From NCBI RefSeq assembly GCF_050920415.1, contig NZ_CP169309.1: a DNA stretch of 64,000 nucleotides; one strand, written 5' to 3'. Source of the stretch: Escherichia coli (GTDB lineage Bacteria; Pseudomonadota; Gammaproteobacteria; Enterobacterales; Enterobacteriaceae). The notes beneath the pieces were generated by a model. The model was not told the DNA's origin, did not search any database, and worked only from the letters and a program-made list of their open reading frames with translations. Positions 37,910-63,353 of the stretch are shown one piece after another. Each line of letters begins with the position of its first letter. Positions within the stretch are counted from its first letter, which is position 1. The position numbers and the translations under genes are program-made.

Positions 37910-38524
37910 TTTACACTTCCTCCGGATTAGCCAGATAACCAGTGGTATCGCCGGTCGGCTGTTGGCGTTAGGTTTGATAACGATATTGGGTTTTGTGAAA
38001 TGCGCGCGCGGCAGTGGCGCGACGGCAGCCAGAGTGCCGTGCTTCTGGCGCAGCTCTTCAATTGGACCGAACTCAAGTGCACGCAGCGGGCAGGATTCGA
38101 CGCATATGGGTTGTTTCCCCTCGGCGACGCGCGAATAACAACCATCGCACTTCGTCATGTGCCCTTTTTCAGCATTGTACTGTGGTGCGCCGTACGGACA
38201 AGCCATGTGGCAGTAGCGGCAGCCGATACAAACATCTTCATCAACCACCACAAAGCCATCTTCACGCTTATGCATTGCGCCGCTGGGGCAGACTTTTGTA
38301 CATGCGGGGTCATCGCAATGGTTACAGGAGATGGAGAGATAATAAGCGAACACGTTCTGGTGCCAGACGCCATTATCTTCCTGCCAGTCGCCGCCAGCGT
38401 ATTCATAAATACGGCGGAAACTGACTTCCGGGCCAAGATCTTTAAAATCTTTGCACGCCAGTTCGCAGGTTTTACAGCCTGTACAGCGGCTGGAATCGAT
38501 AAAAAATCCATATTGTGTGGTCAT
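37910..38524 (-). CDS. ynfG: DMSO-reductase-family Fe-S subunit YnfG; codons 1-191 intact, C-terminus frame-altered, no stop codon, reads in-frame into ynfH
   Basis: Four-cluster ferredoxin motifs (CTGCKTCELAC, CNHCDDPACTKVCP, CIGCRYCHMACP, CDGCYSRV...C). After ...KPNANSRP the frame gives AIPLVIWLIRRKCK and then the ynfH Met, where a DmsB-like ...PTGDTTGYLANPEEV-stop is expected. Confidence 0.8.
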
Positions 38525-41018: not shown

Positions 41019-43206
41019 TTATATTTTTTCGATCTCGACCAGATTAGTGTGCTGCGGGTTTCCCTTCGCCAGTGGTGAAGGGCGCAGAGTGGTTAGCGTA
41101 TTCACACAGCCGCCGTGGTCGATTTTATCGCCAGACATATTGGCCTCGTGCCAGGCTCCCTGGCCCATAGCGCTAACTCCAGGGAGAATGCGTGGTGTCA
41201 CTTTGGCTGGTAGCCGAACTTCGCCACGATGGTTAAACACCCGCACCATATCGCCGTTGGCAATCCCACGTTTCTGTGCATCTATAGGGTTGATCCACAC
41301 TTCCTGACGGCAGGCTGCCTTCAGGACATCAATGTTGCCGTAGGTCGAGTGAGTACGAGATTTGTAATGGAAACCAAACAGTTGTAGCGGGAAGGTACTA
41401 CGTTCAGGGGCGTCCCAGCCTTCGAAGGTTGAGGCATAAACCGGCAGTGGGCTTATTACTTCATCTTTTTCGAGTTCCCAGGTACGGGCAATTTCCGCCA
41501 GTTTGCTGGAATAAATTTCGATCTTACCGGAAGGCGTTTTAAGTGGATTTGTCTCGGGGTCGTCACGAAATGCTTTGTAGGCGATAAAATGACCATTAGG
41601 ATCCTTACGCTTATAGATACCCATTTTTTTCAGTTCGTCGTAAGACGGTAATGCCGGATCTTTGGCAAGCATTTTGGCGTACAGATGTTGTAACCATTGT
41701 TCCTGAGTGCGGCCTTCAGTGAATTTTTGATAGACGTCAGGGCCAAGACGTTTCGCGACTTCACTTAGGATCCAGTAAATCGGTTTGCGTTCGAATTTTT
41801 CGCTGGTGACTGGCTGGAGGAAAATGAGATATCCCATGTTACCGGCGTAATCGTTAGGAATAATATCTTCCTGCTCAACGGTCATCAGGTCTGGCAGCAG
41901 AATGTCGGCATATTTTGCCGATGAGGTCATAAAGTTTTCGATGACCACAATCATTTCGCATTTCGATTCGTCCTGCAGAATTTCATGCGTTTTGTTAATG
42001 TCAGAATGCTGATTAACCAGGGTATTTCCCGCGTAGTTCCAGATGAACTTAATGGGCACATCCAGTTTATCTTTGCCGCGGACGCCGTCGCGGATTGCCG
42101 TCATTTGCGGGCCATGATCGATAGCATCCGTCCAGCTGAAGCAGGAGATTGATGTTTTGACCGGATTATCCAGCACCGGCAGGCGTTCTATGGTAATGGT
42201 ATAGGTGGATTCACGCGCGCCACTATTTCCGCCGCTGATGCCGACATTGCCCGTCAGAATAGGCAACATCGCAATAGCGCGTGCGGTCAGCTCACCGTTT
42301 GCCTGGCGTTGCGGTCCCCAACCCTGGCAGATATAAGCGGGTTTTGCTGTGCCGATTTCACGCGCCAGTTTGATGATACGGTCCACCGGGATACCGGTAA
42401 TTTGCGAAGCCCACTGCGGCGTTTTCGCTGTGTTATCATCACCTTCACCAAGAATATAGGCTTTATAGTGGCCATTTTTTGGTGCATCTGCGGGTAAGGT
42501 TTTTTCGTCATAACCGACGCAGTATTTATCGAGAAAAGGTTGATCAACGAGATTTTCGTTAATCAATGCCATCATTACTGCCGTAGGTGTAGGGCATGGC
42601 ACAGGAAATTTGCGCGGTGCTGTAGGAGCCATACTGGTTGAGTGAACCGCCGTAGCAGTTCATCAGGCGTTTGACCGCCGAGGCTGATGGCGAAGAGCGG
42701 GTCATATTGCCGCCAACGATCCCCGAAGAGTACTGAATATATACAGCCTCATTGCCATATTGTTCGACGGTTTTTTTCAGACTACTGGCGATAGTATCCA
42801 GGGCTTCATCCCAGCTAATCCGTTCGAATTTGCCTTCGCCGCGTTTGCCCACGCGTTTCATTGGGTAATTCAAGCGATCGGGATGATTAATACGCCGACG
42901 GATGGACCGACCGCGCAAACAGGCGCGTACTTGATGATTGCCATACTCGTCGCTGCCGGTGTTGTCAGTTTCCACCCAGGTGACTTCATTATCTTTAACA
43001 TGTAGACGAAGTGCACAGCGGCTACCACAGTTGACGGAACAGGCACCCCAGACCACTTTTTCGCTGGCCTGTTGTACCGCTGCCGCTGCACTGCGCAGGG
43101 TGAACGGTAAAGAAAAACCGCCTGCAGCCAGCGCCAGAGAACCTATCGCGGTAGATTTAACGAGTGTTCTGCGGCTGATGCCCACCATTTGTTCATTTTT
43201 GGACAT
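41019..43206 (-). pseudogene. ynfE: ynfE (DmsA paralogue) disrupted: N-terminal 215-codon ORF (42559..43206) and C-terminal 537-codon ORF (41019..42632) lie in different frames; about 80 codons are missing at the junction
   Basis: N-terminal ORF has Tat signal and Cys cluster and ends ...YGSNDGID-stop. C-terminal ORF resumes at ...LINENLVDQPFLDKYCVGYDEK. The intact paralogue ynfF in this same window has 80 residues between the equivalent NDG and LITENMVDQ. Confidence 0.75.
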
Positions 43207-52961: not shown

Positions 52962-53898
52962 TGCCAGTATCCTTTTTGCATCAGACGTAAACGGGCCAGC
53001 ATTGATACAATGCATATTTGATTTAATAGCTCCCGTTCGTGTTTTCTCTTATTAATGGCATCTTCAGTAAATACAGGGTTACTGATTCTGACACCAATTT
53101 CAAAACAACCTTCAGACGTATTAACGTTTGGTAATAACGTTTCCATTATCGCGTCCTCAACAATGAATTTTGTGATACGGTGCCTGGTGCCTCCAGGTGA
53201 CGTTAACCAGTTAACAATTAACGCCGGATACAGAGAACCCACCCATAAGAACCAATACGGAAGTCAACTGGCCTTTTTAACTGTTCCGCGTGCGCTTAGC
53301 CGCATTCACCGCATCACAAAATTCACTTTAAAAAGGGCGGCAGAGCAGTCACGGAGTAAAACTGATACCGCCAAACGTCACCAGAAAATTGATAACAGAG
53401 GGCGTTGCAGCGGGGTTGCCACTTAAGCGTATGGTCAACCTGACAACCCGGTGTCCTCAACGGGGAAGGAATAACCCCGCCATACTTACCGCCGCGCCAT
53501 TTCGCGGATTGCCACAACCGGAAGCGCACAGACGAAGATGTCAGTGGTACACAACAAAGGGAGGAATGACTTCGCCGTGCGCTTTCGCGTTATGCCCTGA
53601 CTTTTCAGGGATATATCCTTTCAGTAAACTGTTTGTGCCGGATTCTTATCCGTGTCCGGCGCACGACCACGCGCTGTCACGTGTGGTCTCCATTCTCAAC
53701 CAGTAACCTCAATGGAGGATAAAATTAAAATGGTCAGCAAACTAAATTAGACTCGCTGGAAGATTCATTATTAAACAGCGCGTTTAAATTATATTCTTGA
53801 ATGTTTTGGGGATAACCTTGCTGCTGAGGAAGGCTATCCAAACCATGTCGATGGTTTCGAAGCGATATATCTTTATCTATCCCGTAAACATGGATGGA

Positions 53899-56137: not shown

Positions 56138-56962
56138 ATGAGCAGCAAGCTTCATGGTCTTGTCTGGGAAGGGTGCGCCTTCACCGGCATGATCTTATCC
56201 AGGGTGGCAGTAATGGCTCGCCTTGCAGACTACAGCAATGACGAAGGTGTGTCATGGCCTGCAGTGGAGACCATTCGTCGTCAGATTGGGGCAAAGAGTG
56301 AATCAACGGTTAAAGCGGCGATAGCGGAACTGGAAAAGAACGGCTGGCTGACGAAGGAGGAGCGTAAGGTCGGTGGGCGTAATGAAAGCAATATCTACCG
56401 CCTTAATGTGGAAAAACTCGAAGCAGCAGCTGAGGCGGCGCGTGAGGCATATAAACCGAAAAGAAAAATTAGCCCGGCAAAAAATGACCCGTTAACAGTT
56501 GACCAGTCAAATATTGCCCCCTCAACGGTTGACCCGTCAAATTTTGATGGATCAACCGTTGGTAAAAAACAGCCGGTTAGGGGGGCGATGGTTGGCCCCG
56601 ATCCGTCAGTATTAAAACCTGATCCGTCAGATAAAAGATCTTTTCGTCCGGAAGCTTCGCAACCGGACCCGCAGACGGCTGAACAGGATTTTTTAACCCG
56701 ACATCCTGATGCGGTTGTGTTTAGTGCAAAAAAACGTCAGTGGGGAACTCAGGAGGATTTGGCATGCGCACAGTGGATCTGGGGGCGAATCGTGAGTCTT
56801 TACGAACAGGCCGCCAGCGATGATGGCGAGATCACCCGACCGAAAGAACCCAACTGGACAGCATGGGCCAATGACGTGCGCATAATGCGGATGCTGGATG
56901 GCAGAACTCACAGACAAATCTGTGAACCGCCCCGGGTTTCCTGGAGAGTGTTTTATCTGTGA
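56138..56962 (+). pseudogene. Phage replication-initiator (O-like, N-terminal winged-HTH) gene, 5' part; interrupted by an IS element after codon 261
   Basis: N-terminus ...AVMARLADYSNDEGVSWPAVETIRRQIGAKSESTVKAAIAELEKNGWL is typical of phage replisome-organiser proteins. The frame ends inside the IS inverted repeat; the original frame resumes at 58235 and stops at 58414. Confidence 0.65.
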
Positions 56963-56964
56963 AC

Positions 56965-57831
56965 TCAGGCTGCCAGATCATTGTTTCCGATGGAAGCATA
57001 ATAAGCTTTTTCTGCTTCTGCCGGAGGAGTATGGCCCAGCCTTCCCAGCAATCGTCGATTGTTATACCAGTCCACCCACGTGAGTGTGGCCAGTTCCACT
57101 TCTGCACGGTTTTTCCAGCTCTTACGGTGTATTACCTCCGCTTTGTAAAGACCATTGATGCTCTCAGCCATCGCGTTGTCATACGAGTCGCCTGTACTCC
57201 CTGTTGATGCCAGCAGTTTTGCTTCTTTTAGTCGCTCCGTATAGGCCAGTGACACATACTGAGAGCCTTTATCGCTGTGATGGATGGTGCCAGACGGACG
57301 ACGGGCCCACAACGCCTGCTCCAGCGCATCCAGCACGAATGTCGTTTCCATAGACGATGAGACCCGCCACCCCACGATGTATCCGGCAAACACATCAATG
57401 ATGAACGCCACATAGACGAAGCCCTGCCATGTGCTGACGTAAGTAAAATCAGCCACCCACAGCTGGTCAGGACGTTCTGCCACGAACTGACGGTTTACGC
57501 GGTCACCTGTGGCAACGGTTTTCCGGCTGACGGTAGTGCGGACCTTTTTACCCCGGAGAACACCGGCAAGTCCCATAACCGCCATGAGGCGCGCCACTGT
57601 ACATCTGGCCACCCTGATTCCTTCCCGTAACAACTGACGCCAGACTTTACGCACACCGTACACCTGATGATTTTCATCGTATACGCGCTGTATCTCTCTC
57701 TTCAGCCAGTCATCGCGCTGCGCACGGGCACTGCGTTTATCAGGATGATGCCGCTGCTGCTGACAATGGTAATACGTTGACGGGGCAATATGCAGTTCAC
57801 TGCATACCGGTCCGACCCCCGTACTGCTCAC
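56965..57831 (-). CDS. IS3-family transposase OrfB (DDE integrase core)
   Basis: DDE core ...LWVADFTYVSTWQGFVYVAFIIDVFAGYIVGW...HHSDKGSQY...DSYDNAMAESINGLYKAE. In this copy the body is in the same frame as orfA rather than the -1 frame. Confidence 0.85.
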   Translation of the reverse strand: MSSTGVGPVCSELHIAPSTYYHCQQQRHHPDKRSARAQRDDWLKREIQRVYDENHQVYGVRKVWRQLLREGIRVARCTVARLMAVMGLAGVLRGKKVRTTVSRKTVATGDRVNRQFVAERPDQLWVADFTYVSTWQGFVYVAFIIDVFAGYIVGWRVSSSMETTFVLDALEQALWARRPSGTIHHSDKGSQYVSLAYTERLKEAKLLASTGSTGDSYDNAMAESINGLYKAEVIHRKSWKNRAEVELATLTWVDWYNNRRLLGRLGHTPPAEAEKAYYASIGNNDLAA

Positions 57832-57852
57832 GCAGCTTATCCAGCAGTGGCA

Positions 57853-58179
57853 TTATTTTTTCCAGAGGCGGTCGAACTCCGCCTTCGCAAAATAAGCGGA
57901 AGCCTGGCGAAGGATATCGTTACTGCGGCGCAGTTCACGATTTTCACGTTCCAGCTCTTTCAGACGCTGACGTTCAGCGGTGGTGAGCCCACCATCACCG
58001 CTCCCGGTATCCCTCTCATGCTGGCGAACCCAGACACGCAGAGTCTCTGGCGTACAGCCAATCTTTGGAGCAATGGAACAAATTGCCGCCCATTGTGAGT
58101 CATATTCGCCCTGACTTTCCAGAACCATACGAACTGCGCGTTGACGGACTTCGGGGGAAAAACGAGTATTTTTAGTCAT
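57853..58179 (-). CDS. IS3-family transposase OrfA (HTH plus leucine zipper), 108 aa
   Basis: [57 protein letters not shown]...; ends WKK-stop at an A-rich run. Confidence 0.85.
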
Positions 58180-58234
58180 CCTGTTTACCTCTTTCTCAGG
58201 AAGTTTAGTCTCCAGGATTTCCGGGGCGGTTCAC

Positions 58235-58414
58235 TGCGAAATGTTTGGTCGGGTACAGCGGGATCCATTCTGGGTAAAAAACATCATGAGCCCGTCAAAA
58301 CTTCGCGATAAATGGGATGAGCTGGTTATCCGTCTGGGGCGTTCGCCTGTACAGCGTTGTGTGAATCATATTTCTGAACCTGACACCGAAATTCCACCAG
58401 GGTTCAGGGGGTAG
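58235..58414 (+). other. 3' remnant (59 codons) of the IS-interrupted phage replication gene
   Basis: Joining 56138..56922 to 58237.. (removing the IS and one CTG copy) restores a continuous frame ...RQICEMFGRVQRDPFWVKNIMSPSKLRDKWDELVIRLG... ending at TAG 58412-58414. Confidence 0.6.
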
Positions 58415-59341: not shown

Positions 59342-59686
59342 ATGCAAAGAATTATTCCTGATAAAAATTGGTGGGAAAAAGAGCGTATTAATCGTAAAGC
59401 ATCATCAAAATGCCCATATGCTAGTTCATACAGATGTCCTCGGTACTATCAGAGTGTAGTTTTGCTCTCAAGCATCAATATGATAGCTGGTATGGCAACT
59501 AGGAAAGAAAAAGAGTTGGGCGAATTTGGGGAAAGAACTAGTTTCTCATATTTATGTGATGAAGAAGTCCCAACAGTTACTACAAAAGAATATGGCGGCC
59601 TTGCATCAGTTAGTAATTTTTGCCCAGAAATATCATTTAGATATTTACACTATTACGCCGATTATATGTGTAAATATGTTGATTAG
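59342..59686 (+). CDS. Hypothetical Cys-rich small protein (114 aa) in the AT-rich cargo island
   Basis: ORF in AT-rich DNA, 70 bp upstream of the HEPN-like gene on the same strand; several Cys in CP/CD contexts; weak RBS. Confidence 0.35.
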   Translation: MQRIIPDKNWWEKERINRKASSKCPYASSYRCPRYYQSVVLLSSINMIAGMATRKEKELGEFGERTSFSYLCDEEVPTVTTKEYGGLASVSNFCPEISFRYLHYYADYMCKYVD

Positions 59687-59755
59687 ATAGATCAGGATAC
59701 TGGCAGGCGTAGTGCGGAAAAAGATAATTTAGAAAATGATTGGAAATATACATGG

Positions 59756-60208
59756 ATGTCAGTCAATCCTAAATTTTATTTAGATTGCGATGTTTTTGAA
59801 AGTGTCAAAAACTTCAATGAAGAATTGGCTAGTGATTACTTAAAGAGATTGCATCCAAATATCATTCAGCAAATAGATAGAATGAATAATTGCTTGGATA
59901 ATAATGACCCTGCGGGTGCACTGCACGCAGCCTCTAATATTCTAGAAACTATGGCGAAGGAAATCACTCAAAACCCGAATGTGGCAAATGAGTCATTGGG
60001 TGGTTTTTTTAAACAGTTCGAAAAAATGTCAAAATTACCTAAGAATCTTATTGATATTGTTAAAGATATTTATGATTTACGCAACAAACTACCTACTGCT
60101 GGACACGGAAGCTTGAACAGGCCTGAATTAACTATGGTAGAAGCTATAACTATTGCGGCAATGACAAAGGCGATTTTAGAAATTGAATATCGAAGCAAAG
60201 CCATCTAA
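59756..60208 (+). CDS. Abi_C / HEPN-like abortive-infection-type protein (150 aa)
   Basis: C-terminal motif DLRNKLPTAGHGSLNRPE fits the R-N-x(n)-H-G signature of Abi_C/HEPN domains; AT-rich codon usage. Confidence 0.4.
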   Translation: MSVNPKFYLDCDVFESVKNFNEELASDYLKRLHPNIIQQIDRMNNCLDNNDPAGALHAASNILETMAKEITQNPNVANESLGGFFKQFEKMSKLPKNLIDIVKDIYDLRNKLPTAGHGSLNRPELTMVEAITIAAMTKAILEIEYRSKAI

Positions 60209-60702
60209 CAAACATAAATTATGTGGTTCAAATTCCCGCTATACTTCTGTGTTATTGCCGCCAGCGTCTACTTATCGCTGTGAGTTCAACGGGGCGATGA
60301 TGCGTTAGAGATCTCTGAATCGATTGAAGTCTAAGGTTGTCAGGGCTGTAACAGTAGCCCTGTGTCATGAAAGGATTGCATATTAATTAACGAAGAACAG
60401 ACCAATAGCATTGATAGTTGTTTTCAAAAATAGACCAATAACAAACACGACTGGCCATCTCATCGATTTTCGACAGTATGCAGAAATGGGCGGGATCCAC
60501 ACGCAGTACCAGCTTGCTAAGATAAACGAAAAGGAGACTTTAACCAGTCAGTGGCTGCATGCTGATGGTGATCCGCTATGGGCCGTAGATGTTGTTTGAT
60601 GTACGCAGAAAGAGACGACGAAGGGCACTATGCCGAAAACTAAATCGGTTTTAGAGATTAACCGCGCTGGTGAGCTGGAGTGATTGACTTTTAGAACGCC
60701 AG

Positions 60703-60732
60703 AAAGCAAAAACCTCACAATCGAGTGAGGTT
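60703..60732 (-). terminator. Candidate terminator after the kinase-partner operon (AACCTCAC-loop-GTGAGGTT)
   Basis: Perfect 8-bp stem; U-rich flank on the minus strand; lies 15 bp downstream of the 208-aa gene stop. Confidence 0.45.
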
Positions 60733-60746
60733 TTGTTAAGGGCTTA

Positions 60747-61373
60747 CTATTTTTTGGCAATTAGTGCATGCATCGCCATTTCATGACCTTTTCTGCGAAG
60801 TTTTTTCACACGGGGCTTGAGCCTAGTGAAAGAACTTGGGCTAATTGTCGACTCAGCTTCAACTATATCATTGCGGGGAGCACCCGTTTTAGCATCTTCA
60901 TAGCGGATAAGTATTTTAAACGTGCCCTCATCAACTCCGACACCTTGCAAGTGATGAAGTTTAGATGAAACAGCACCGATTAAATAATCATGAATTCCTT
61001 GCAGGCCCGTTTTACCGATTGGTGAATAGGTATGCAACATATTTGCACCTACAGGAAGGAACTGGCGAAAGTCAGGAACATGCATCTTGTTAACTTCAAC
61101 AGAAGTGTATGCTTTCATGTCAAAAGAAACTCCAGGTTTCCGTGCATTGACTTCTAGCCATTGAGGCAAATCGAGAATATATTTGCTCTCAGCAGTTACT
61201 TCCAGTTTCTTCCTAGACGATAATGTCACGTCCATTACCTGAGCCATATCAGCCATAGAAAGCTCAGCGGCCTTCCGGTTGATGGCTTGTACCCGCTCGC
61301 TCACGTTAGGTCCGAATGCATCGAACAACGAAATTTCAGCAGCTGGTTTAATGGCTTCAGTTTTAACAGACAT
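60747..61373 (-). CDS. Hypothetical protein (208 aa), translationally coupled partner of the P-loop kinase
   Basis: AAGGAG Shine-Dalgarno 5-6 nt upstream of ATG 61371-61373, directly after the kinase stop; no family recognised (track ORF starts at GTG 61379). Confidence 0.5.
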   Translation of the reverse strand: MSVKTEAIKPAAEISLFDAFGPNVSERVQAINRKAAELSMADMAQVMDVTLSSRKKLEVTAESKYILDLPQWLEVNARKPGVSFDMKAYTSVEVNKMHVPDFRQFLPVGANMLHTYSPIGKTGLQGIHDYLIGAVSSKLHHLQGVGVDEGTFKILIRYEDAKTGAPRNDIVEAESTISPSSFTRLKPRVKKLRRKGHEMAMHALIAKK

Positions 61374-61398
61374 ATACACTCCTTAGATAGGACACTTA

Positions 61399-62097
61399 TT
61401 ATACACCTAAATGCGCTAGATCGCTAACGTCTGAATATGGGCAGCTATGGGAGGTAGTCCAGTTTTCAAGGGTCACGTTAGGAGTATAGTCGACCACGAA
61501 CTGACCATCATTTTCAGGATCTTCCCGTCGATGATAAACATTGAGTGTAAATAGGCCTGCATATTTCGCGAGCATATGTTCAATGGTCTCTCTGCTCTTG
61601 AAAAAGTTCGCTTTAAGAACCTCTAACGGAACCTTACGAGAGCGGGCTTGGGCAAAAACCCACGCGTAAGCCGGATCAAAATAGACGTAATTCAGTGCTA
61701 CCTGATAACCAGCCTTCAGGGCCAGATCAAAGTTTCTCTCCGCAATACCTATACTGGAGAAAGTAGAGTCCATAACAATGGGATAGCCTTCAGATAGCGC
61801 TTTTTTGTAGATAAAATCGACCATTCTGGAGGCAGGTCTCTGATAGTCCACAGAGTTCTCTTCATTGTAGTAGGGGAACCACCAGCGAAAATCATCAGCA
61901 TCAATTCGAACAATGTTTGTGATGCCATGTTGTTCTAAAAGACGATTTAAGAGCTCGGTTTTACCTGCAGCAGGCGAACCAGCCATAAACAGGACGTGCT
62001 TGGCATTGGCATTTTTGTTTGCTGTTACGTAACTATAAACGTAAGGGCGAATTGCCTCACCAAACTCAGGCAGTATGGTTTCAAGTTCTTTTTTCAT
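61399..62097 (-). CDS. P-loop kinase of the zeta-toxin / polynucleotide-kinase superfamily (232 aa)
   Basis: Walker A MAGSPAAGKTEL followed by IVRIDADDFR (compare zeta toxin GGQPGSGKTS...VIVIDNDTFK and T4 Pnk GCPGSGKST...NRDDYR), then IVMDSTFSS and ALKAGYQVALNYVYFDP. Confidence 0.55.
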   Translation of the reverse strand: MKKELETILPEFGEAIRPYVYSYVTANKNANAKHVLFMAGSPAAGKTELLNRLLEQHGITNIVRIDADDFRWWFPYYNEENSVDYQRPASRMVDFIYKKALSEGYPIVMDSTFSSIGIAERNFDLALKAGYQVALNYVYFDPAYAWVFAQARSRKVPLEVLKANFFKSRETIEHMLAKYAGLFTLNVYHRREDPENDGQFVVDYTPNVTLENWTTSHSCPYSDVSDLAHLGV

Positions 62098-62261
62098 CGG
62101 TAAATCATGCCGTGGTAGTTTTAGTTTTATTTAACAATATCATAAACGTTTAAAGATGGTTACAAATTAGCTAGATTTGTGAGCGCTTTAACCTCTAAAA
62201 CCCTCTGGAACCCAATACCGCTTTTCTGGCTGTCTTTTCAATACGGCATCCAGCGCATCAC

Positions 62262-62600
62262 TTACTCGGTCTGTATGCGGTTCATTGCTGAAGTCGCCAG
62301 TTGCGGGTAAATCTGCATCTCTGCGCCGTTTAAGATTCGCGTATTTACGCGCAAGCGCTCGATGGCTTCATTTTGCTGGTGGCTTTCCTTCCTCGCGGCT
62401 ATTCTAGCTATCTGATTGGCTGCTATGGCCTTTGCCGCTGTCATGGAATGCGCCAGAGTCTTATCCGTCATCATTACACGCTGCGTTTCCAGCATGCTGG
62501 AATGATCTCTTTTTGTTGTTCTTGAAGAAGAACTCTTATTCTTCGGTATATCATTTTGACAGGGGGCAGTGTAAGTATCCCTGCAAAACGAACCATTCAC
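62262..62600 (-). CDS. Hypothetical small protein (77-112 aa), upstream of the kinase operon
   Basis: ORF with possible internal start MLETQRVMMTDKTLAHSMTAAKAIAANQIARIAARKE...; helical and basic; 164 bp upstream of the kinase gene. Confidence 0.3.
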   Translation of the reverse strand: MNGSFCRDTYTAPCQNDIPKNKSSSSRTTKRDHSSMLETQRVMMTDKTLAHSMTAAKAIAANQIARIAARKESHQQNEAIERLRVNTRILNGAEMQIYPQLATSAMNRIQTE

Positions 62601-62911: not shown

Positions 62912-63122
62912 TTTTATATTGGCGAGGTGACGGGAGTTAAGTAGGATTGCTGCGGGTGCTTGAGGCTATCTGTCTCAGGCATGAATACCAACGGCAGATA
63001 GAGAAAAGCCCCAGTTAACATTACGCGTCCTGCAAGACGCCTAACATTAATCTGAGGCCATATCTATGACTTGCACACGTAGGTTAGCCTCTTACGTGCC
63101 GAAAGGCAAGGAGAAGCAGGCT

Positions 63123-63353
63123 ATGAAGCAGCATAAGGCGATGTTAATCGCCCTGATTGTCATCTGTTTAACTGTCATTGTGACGGCACTGGTAACGAGG
63201 AAAGATCTCTGTGAGGTACGAATCCGAACCAGCCAAACGGAGGTCGCTGTCTTCACAGCTTACGAACCTGAGGAGTTAGAGACCAGGCGAGGGAGAAATC
63301 CCTCGCCACCTCTGATGAGTCAGGCATCCTCAATGCACCCACACTTAACTTGA
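63123..63353 (+). CDS. Hok/Gef-family type I toxin homologue with a 25-codon C-terminal extension (76 codons to the first stop)
   Basis: MKQHKAMLIALIVICLTVIVTALVTRKDLCEVRIRTSQTEVAVFTAYEPEE aligns with Hok (...[24 protein letters not shown]...). After ...EPEE the next codon is TTA (Leu) and the frame runs to 63353. Confidence 0.75.
   Translation: MKQHKAMLIALIVICLTVIVTALVTRKDLCEVRIRTSQTEVAVFTAYEPEELETRRGRNPSPPLMSQASSMHPHLT

Follow-up and report, generated by a model that had tools for sequence, protein, structure and literature searches.

An IS629-Type Insertion Sequence in the O-Like Replication Initiator Gene of a Lambdoid Prophage of Escherichia coli

The Interrupted Locus

The region considered in this study is a window of 64,000 nucleotides (nt) from Escherichia coli (contig NZ_CP169309.1 of assembly GCF_050920415.1), which contains a lambdoid prophage integrated beside rspB. 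The early-right operon of this prophage holds a gene for a predicted O-like replication initiator, and this gene is interrupted by an insertion sequence (IS) of the IS629/IS1203/IS3411 type, which belongs to the IS3 family. The limits of the element, its family and isoform type, the duplication of the trinucleotide CTG at its flanks and the corresponding empty site in a near-clonal strain have all been read directly, and it is very probable that codon 262 of the 320 codons of the initiator gene received this copy in a very recent transposition, in antisense orientation and with duplication of CTG. The features of the locus are collected in Table 1.

Table 1. Coordinates of the inserted element, its coding and regulatory features, and the interrupted gene (positions of the window; aa, amino acids; ORF, open reading frame)
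Feature	Position	Strand	Basis or remark
Initiator gene, 5' part (codons 1-261 and two bases of codon 262)	56138-56922	+	ORF list, in-silico excision, phrog_391, HTH_36
Iteron-like cluster TGAYCNGTCA, presumed prophage origin, intact	56485-56629	+	Inside the initiator gene, upstream of the IS
Left CTG copy of the 3-bp target site duplication	56920-56922		Single CTG in the empty site of strain MFDS1022581
IS629/IS1203/IS3411-type insertion sequence, IS3 family, 1311 bp	56923-58233	-	Base-level sequence reading; sole copy, no other being found in the 64-kb window
Right terminal inverted repeat (IRR), TGAACCGCCCCGGGTTTCCTGGAGA	56923-56947		Downstream of orfB; matches the other end at 13/13 terminal and 22/25 total positions
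orfB body, HTH_21 and rve DDE catalytic core, 288-aa ORF as sequenced	56965-57831	-	ORF list, Pfam
ALIL pseudoknot, stimulator of -1 frameshifting	57781-57898	-	Rfam RF01497, 114 bits (gathering score 50)
C5 run (G5 on the coding strand; C4 in canonical copies)	57816-57820	-	Only difference from the RM9088 copy
A6 slippery run, presumed -1 slip site	57856-57861	-	Sequence reading; directly before the orfA stop TAA (57853-57855)
orfA, 108 aa, HTH_Tnp_1, intact	57853-58179	-	Exact sequence on 851 contigs
Left terminal inverted repeat (IRL)	58209-58233		Upstream of orfA; sequence reading
Right CTG copy of the target site duplication	58234-58236		Sequence reading and empty-site comparison
Initiator gene, 3' part (third base of codon 262, codons 263-320, stop)	58237-58414	+	Rest of the C-terminal domain and DnaT-like tail

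The element is bounded by imperfect terminal inverted repeats (TGAACCGCCCCGG…/…CCGGGGCGGTTCA) that present the TG…CA ends found in the IS3 family. An earlier reading, made from the sequence only and without database searches (hereafter, the sequence-only reading), had placed an element of 1311 bp with these inverted repeats between two CTG copies at this very position, and all of this holds on an exact check of the sequence. The canonical element measures 1310 bp, the window copy being longer owing to one extra C in a homopolymer. Target duplications of IS629 comprise 3-4 bp (PMC3271280). A match of 3 bp between the flanks has by itself a chance of 1/64 of arising, a doubt that is removed by the existence of the empty site.

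Empty Site and Age of the Insertion

In-silico excision of the element plus one CTG joins the two parts of the initiator gene into a single ORF of 320 aa plus the stop codon. The sequence-only reading had anticipated a continuous frame after excision, which is indeed obtained, with a length somewhat different from the 322 codons that it had estimated. When excision offsets from 0 to 6 bases were tried, those of 1, 2, 4, 5 and 6 bases did not restore the frame, and the only other open one was that in which both CTG copies are kept, at the cost of one additional codon. Six complete E. coli genomes carry an annotated and uninterrupted gene that is 100% identical to the 969 nt rebuilt in this way, and the exact 320-aa protein is encoded on 659 contigs according to a collection of 15 billion proteins, from which the interrupted product of 274 aa is absent.

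The empty site, with a single CTG, is carried by E. coli MFDS1022581 (NZ_CP169399.1), a strain that is 100% identical to the window over the 12.9 kb that precede the IS and the 5.8 kb that follow it. In the record of this strain, the match to the left flank ends at 2506982 and that to the right flank starts at 2506980, so that both overlap by exactly 3 bp, CTG. Because of this exact overlap, the insertion is a genuine transposition accompanied by duplication of 3 bp. The window and MFDS1022581, compared over the 62.7 kb outside the IS, differ by only two substitutions (21462 and 22609, in ydgI and ydgH, with C in the window and T in the relative) and 0 indels, on account of which the insertion must be very recent. 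In addition, the same junction was sought with a 400-nt query composed of flank plus IS in 5426 complete E. coli genomes, and it was found in none of them. The sole full-coverage matches to this query were two-piece matches in O111 strains, in which an IS1203 copy lies after the DUF977 gene.

The event is an ordinary one, of a kind already known, in which a known IS has landed in the sort of place where such elements usually do. Its interest resides mainly in the fact that it constitutes a clean and recent microevolutionary marker between two otherwise near-identical isolates, of little importance beyond strain typing, and in that it adds a further example of IS629-type elements eroding lambdoid prophages. 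In this respect, it resembles the defective prophages riddled with IS629 of enterohaemorrhagic E. coli (EHEC) O157, where elements of this type likewise interrupt lambdoid prophage genes.

The Interrupted Gene and Its Truncated Product

The protein restored by excision is covered along residues 1-320 by the family phrog_391, described as 'replication initiation O-like' (E = 2.7e-113), and it is matched by 15 further replication families. The Pfam domain HTH_36, at residues 25-71 (E = 1.1e-7), corresponds to an N-terminal winged-helix/helix-turn-helix (HTH) DNA-binding domain, while residues 188-308 form a domain common to DnaD-like and replisome-organiser PHROGs. Full-length homologues (58% identity) are encoded by SfII and SfIV, two viable temperate phages, where they have been annotated as replication, O or primosomal protein. 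Upstream of it lie cro and a cII-like gene of the YdaT family, and the next gene downstream is a DUF977 (Ren-like) one.

All three exact matches to TGAYCNGTCA in the 64-kb window, together with three sites with one mismatch, are contained in a stretch of 145 bp inside this gene; as the pattern was derived from the iteron region itself, it is the clustering alone that constitutes the evidence. The cluster also includes a 19-nt near-palindrome (56523-56561). At the protein level, the repeats encode a repeated peptide, which appears as TVDQSN, TVDPSN, DPSV and DPSD. The identification of the target as a prophage replication gene, already made in the sequence-only reading, is well supported by the coverage with phrog_391, by these internal iterons and by the position of the gene after cro and the cII-like gene.

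The organization described here recalls that of lambda O and ori-lambda, with an N-terminal DNA-binding domain, iterons in the middle of the gene, a C-terminal part for recruitment of the host or loader proteins, and a location after cro and cII. It has been predicted from these likenesses that the initiator works like lambda O, though it falls outside the Pfam family Phage_rep_O. In contrast with lambda O, it ends in a DnaT-like tail, and no P- or DnaC-like loader gene was found immediately downstream, the next gene being the DUF977/Ren-like one.

The last ~20 codons of the initiator (58355-58411, plus strand) match the extreme C-terminus of E. coli DnaT, or primosomal protein 1 (residues 160-179 in PDB 2ru8, 6aep and 9zbt_D, with E values of about 0.001-0.004). 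The C-terminal ends of three other PHROG replication families align with it as well, and among phages with otherwise unrelated initiator genes the DNA of the tail is 88-91% identical. By its sequence, it looks like a portable motif for the recruitment of host factors in a replication module devoid of a loader gene, and it may substitute for the P/DnaC-like partner. In a 2026 paper on the structure of DnaT, no function was found to be assigned to this extreme C-terminal part. The tail represents a small lead, which may show how lambdoid replication modules without a loader recruit the helicase machinery of the host.

The IS enters the gene between the second and the third base of codon 262, and its end happens to supply a T followed by GAA, so that residues 262 and 263 are kept. 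The interrupted ORF terminates at 56962, and thus consists of 263 native residues followed by 11 encoded by the IS (PPRVSWRVFYL), which add up to 274 aa. The last 57 residues are lost, including part of the C-terminal domain and the DnaT-like tail, while the HTH domain at the N-terminus and the iterons of the presumed origin are preserved. The truncated initiator probably retains binding to the origin, though it would have lost the ability to engage the replication machinery of the host, and the prophage would therefore be unable to replicate on its own after induction. A loss of function of the initiator is consequently the likely outcome. This is in line with the proposal of the sequence-only reading that the insertion probably inactivates prophage replication; it is nonetheless a deduction and not a demonstration, and the prophage may already have been defective.

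Identity and Coding Capacity of the Element

The OrfAB protein repaired by removal of one base scores 365 bits against the NCBIfam model NF033516 transpos_IS3 (cutoff 160), and Pfam recognizes in it HTH_Tnp_1 (1-87), HTH_21 (155-212) and rve (235-331, E = 2.3e-25). These matches, together with the ALIL pseudoknot, corroborate the IS3-family assignment made in the sequence-only reading, which had also called the element IS629-like. By convention, two elements are isoforms when their nucleotide identity to the named copy exceeds 90% across the whole element (ISfinder). The window copy was compared with an O157:H7 copy named 'IS3-like element IS1203 family transposase' by the Prokaryotic Genome Annotation Pipeline (PGAP), to which it is 97.1% identical, well over that 90%, and it is separated from the main O157 type by 37 substitutions. 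IS1203 and IS3411 are in turn isoforms of IS629, whose sub-types differ by 4-5% (PMC3271280), so that the name IS629-like is appropriate.

The closest relatives of the window copy are found in other strains. Compared with the 1310-bp copy of RM9088, there are 0 mismatches and one gap of 1 nt, which corresponds to the extra C. The copies of UTAK-1 and of the OkiPb strains are likewise identical to the window copy except for one base, and the same is true of 1310-bp copies in several bovine isolates. Near-full copies have been detected in 3042 of the 5426 complete genomes, and therefore the element is common and diagnostic of no pathotype. The sequence-only reading had considered it an IS type foreign to K-12, which is right in that K-12 lacks IS629 (PMC3271280), but this frequency deprives it of any value as a special marker. 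A known preference for prophages, where 62% of the IS629 copies of O157 are located (PMC3271280), is shared by the window copy.

The coding organization is that expected for this group of elements, with a 108-aa orfA and an orfB reached by a -1 frameshift. The signals for this frameshift, an A6 run and a downstream ALIL structure, are present between both genes, and A_AAN is a class of slip motif of the IS3 family (PMC4066793). As sequenced, the body of orfB lies in the phase of orfA, from which it is separated by a TAA stop and 14 codons, and its exact 288-aa sequence is absent from the collection of 15 billion proteins. A scan of the IS region for promoter and terminator consensus sequences yielded nothing over the expectation from shuffled sequences.

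The window copy differs from IS629, IS1203 and IS3411 in the extra C, which breaks the OrfAB frame. It is situated ~40 nt downstream of the slip site, as an insertion adjoining a stem of the pseudoknot, and the ALIL score falls to 114 bits in the window copy from 120.9 in the canonical one. As sequenced, the copy has no uninterrupted -1 frame leading from the slip site across the DDE domain, since this frame ends six aberrant codons past the extra C (…EQYG-GRTGMQ*). As a result, the translated OrfAB would have a length of about 127 aa and lack both HTH_21 and the DDE core, and the copy has to be classified as non-autonomous in its sequenced form; it would count as autonomous if the extra C were a sequencing error. 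The description of the event as a clean insertion by the sequence-only reading is thus accurate for the insertion itself, but not for the IS copy, whose broken transposase frame was overlooked.

Two other copies are relevant to the origin of the one in the window, both from MFDS1022581. Its chromosomal copy (L006:1501-2808) interrupts an L,D-transpeptidase gene and is flanked by the 5-bp direct repeat CGAGT; three homopolymer lengths, and no substitution, separate it from the window copy. The copy on the katP plasmid (L007:1501-2810) has an intact transposase frame and is separated from the window copy by three substitutions plus the extra C of the latter. According to these data, the lineage of the chromosomal copy is a likelier source than the plasmid copy.

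Proposed Mechanism of Transposition

The element shares with IS911, IS2 and IS3 the order of domains (HTH, leucine-zipper region, HTH_21 and DDE rve), the programmed -1 frameshift and the TG…CA ends, and therefore copy-out/paste-in transposition via a circle is expected. By analogy with these members of the family, the IS would have moved through a circular intermediate, in a process requiring the OrfAB transposase, which ribosomes would produce by slipping into the -1 frame at the A6 run, stimulated by the ALIL pseudoknot. The stimulator differs from that of IS911, which is a three-way junction.

In EHEC, the protein IEE promotes a transposase-dependent excision of IS629, and strains carrying IEE can excise insertions of this type (PMC9943667). 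Reversal of the insertion reported here would need both IEE and a transposase from another copy, as the dependence of IEE on transposase (PMC9943667) means that a copy with a broken OrfAB has to obtain it elsewhere. Thus, if the frameshift is real, the window copy cannot move unless it receives transposase from another one, and an IEE-type excision restoring the initiator gene would equally depend on such a supply.

Alternative Explanations

Several readings other than a recent transposition that inactivates a replication initiator have been contemplated. The IS could have arrived by homologous recombination with a prophage already carrying it, given that lambdoid prophages recombine often and that a related prophage of O111 strains has a copy of IS1203 in this module. 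Nevertheless, that copy sits after the DUF977 gene and not inside the initiator, the junction occurs in 0 of the 5426 genomes, and the flanks are identical to those of the empty-site relative as far as the duplicated CTG, as is characteristic of transposition; recombination is consequently most improbable. Other observations weigh against the identification of the target and the effect attributed to the insertion. PGAP names the interrupted gene only as 'helix-turn-helix domain-containing protein', Pfam finds in it only HTH_36 with no match to Phage_rep_O, the family of the lambda O N-terminus, and NCBIfam gives no match at all, as would suit a transcriptional regulator of the HTH type. This possibility is very unlikely in view of the full-length match to phrog_391 and the 15 additional replication families, the annotation of the phage homologues as replication protein O or primosomal protein, the iteron cluster within the gene, its position after the cro and cII-like genes, and the DnaT-like tail. 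With respect to the effect, the requirement of the initiator for prophage replication is a predicted role, and in the near-clonal IS-free relative MFDS1022581 the portal gene and the transposase genes of a resident IS21 element (in a part of the prophage that lies outside the window) are flagged as frameshifted by PGAP, so that the prophage may already be defective and unable to make particles. The insertion would then be functionally neutral, either for this reason or because other lambdoid prophages replicate this one in trans, with nothing being inactivated; the preferential accumulation of IS629 copies in prophages (PMC3271280) is what would be expected under weak selection on insertions. 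This alternative has a substantial chance of being correct, albeit a smaller one than its opposite, because no other part of the early region is damaged or differs from that of the relative (int, xis, exo, the LexA-type repressor, cro, the cII-like gene, the iterons and the Q region), the exact initiator allele is found on 659 contigs, which argues for selection somewhere, and assembly errors may lie behind the 'frameshifted' flags. A further, highly speculative proposal is that a C5 copy already broken moved here with transposase supplied in trans by a sister copy, and that the 274-aa product acts as a dominant-negative blocker of the replication of incoming phages sharing the iterons. Were this long shot to be true, an apparently dead prophage gene would become a superinfection-exclusion factor.

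Regarding the extra C, the copy could have been broken by mutation after landing, it could have been mobilised in trans, or the base could be a sequencing artefact. The last explanation implies that the IS is an intact and autonomous copy of 1310 bp, inserted by its own transposase, and it weighs against taking the frameshift at face value, since the additional base may be a homopolymer miscall. It is consistent with the near identity of the flanks to the sister strain, which denotes a very recent insertion and makes a second mutation inside the IS unlikely a priori. Moreover, the transposases of the IS3 family act mainly in cis, as established for IS911, and an already broken copy should rarely move. 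The chromosomal copy of MFDS1022581, whose differences from the window copy are confined to homopolymer lengths, also suggests noise in repeated elements, of the kind typical of long-read assemblies. Finally, the identical 82-nt context of the C5 run had no exact match among the >20,000 places in the E. coli collection where it was sought. The best match, with one mismatch, belongs to strain PNUSAE008406, which also has a C5 copy, labelled 'frameshifted' by PGAP; this weighs against an artefact, in that such slippage occurs, or is reported, elsewhere. In the same sense, the absence of indels in comparison with an independent assembly over 62.7 kb shows that the assembly is not generally error-prone in homopolymers. 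The genes ynfG (37911-38524) and ynfE (41019-43206), both on the minus strand, are 'frameshifted' according to PGAP in MFDS1022581 and the window sequence is identical; the break in ynfE is not at an obvious homopolymer, and these genes could be either real pseudogenes of the lineage or systematic errors shared by both assemblies. The odds between a real extra base and an artefact are near even, the artefact remaining just short of the balance.

The Prophage Neighbourhood

The genes that surround the insertion comprise int, xis, exo, dicB with DicF, a LexA-type repressor gene, cro, the cII-like gene, the initiator and the DUF977 gene. The small RNA DicF (53335-53386, minus strand; 76.7 bits) adjoins dicB, and the sok antitoxin RNA (62954-63128, plus strand; 108 bits) adjoins a hok/gef gene that PGAP annotates as partial in the relative. 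Both pairs, DicF/dicB and sok/hok, are typical cargo of prophages of the Qin type.

Between the replication module and hok lies a cargo block (59342-62495) with two small ORFs on the plus strand and, on the minus strand, a hypothetical gene for a protein of 208 aa, a gene of the zeta-toxin family (61399-62097) and an ORF of 77 aa. PADLOC was run on six genes located downstream of the insertion, namely the DUF977 and zeta-toxin genes and four neighbouring ones, and no defence model matched them. In E. coli 2013C-3250 and other O111 strains (L008:3333-4642), an IS1203 copy is placed directly after the DUF977 gene in the replication module of a related prophage, where it replaces the cargo region up to hok, and represents an independent insertion of an IS629-type element in the same neighbourhood.

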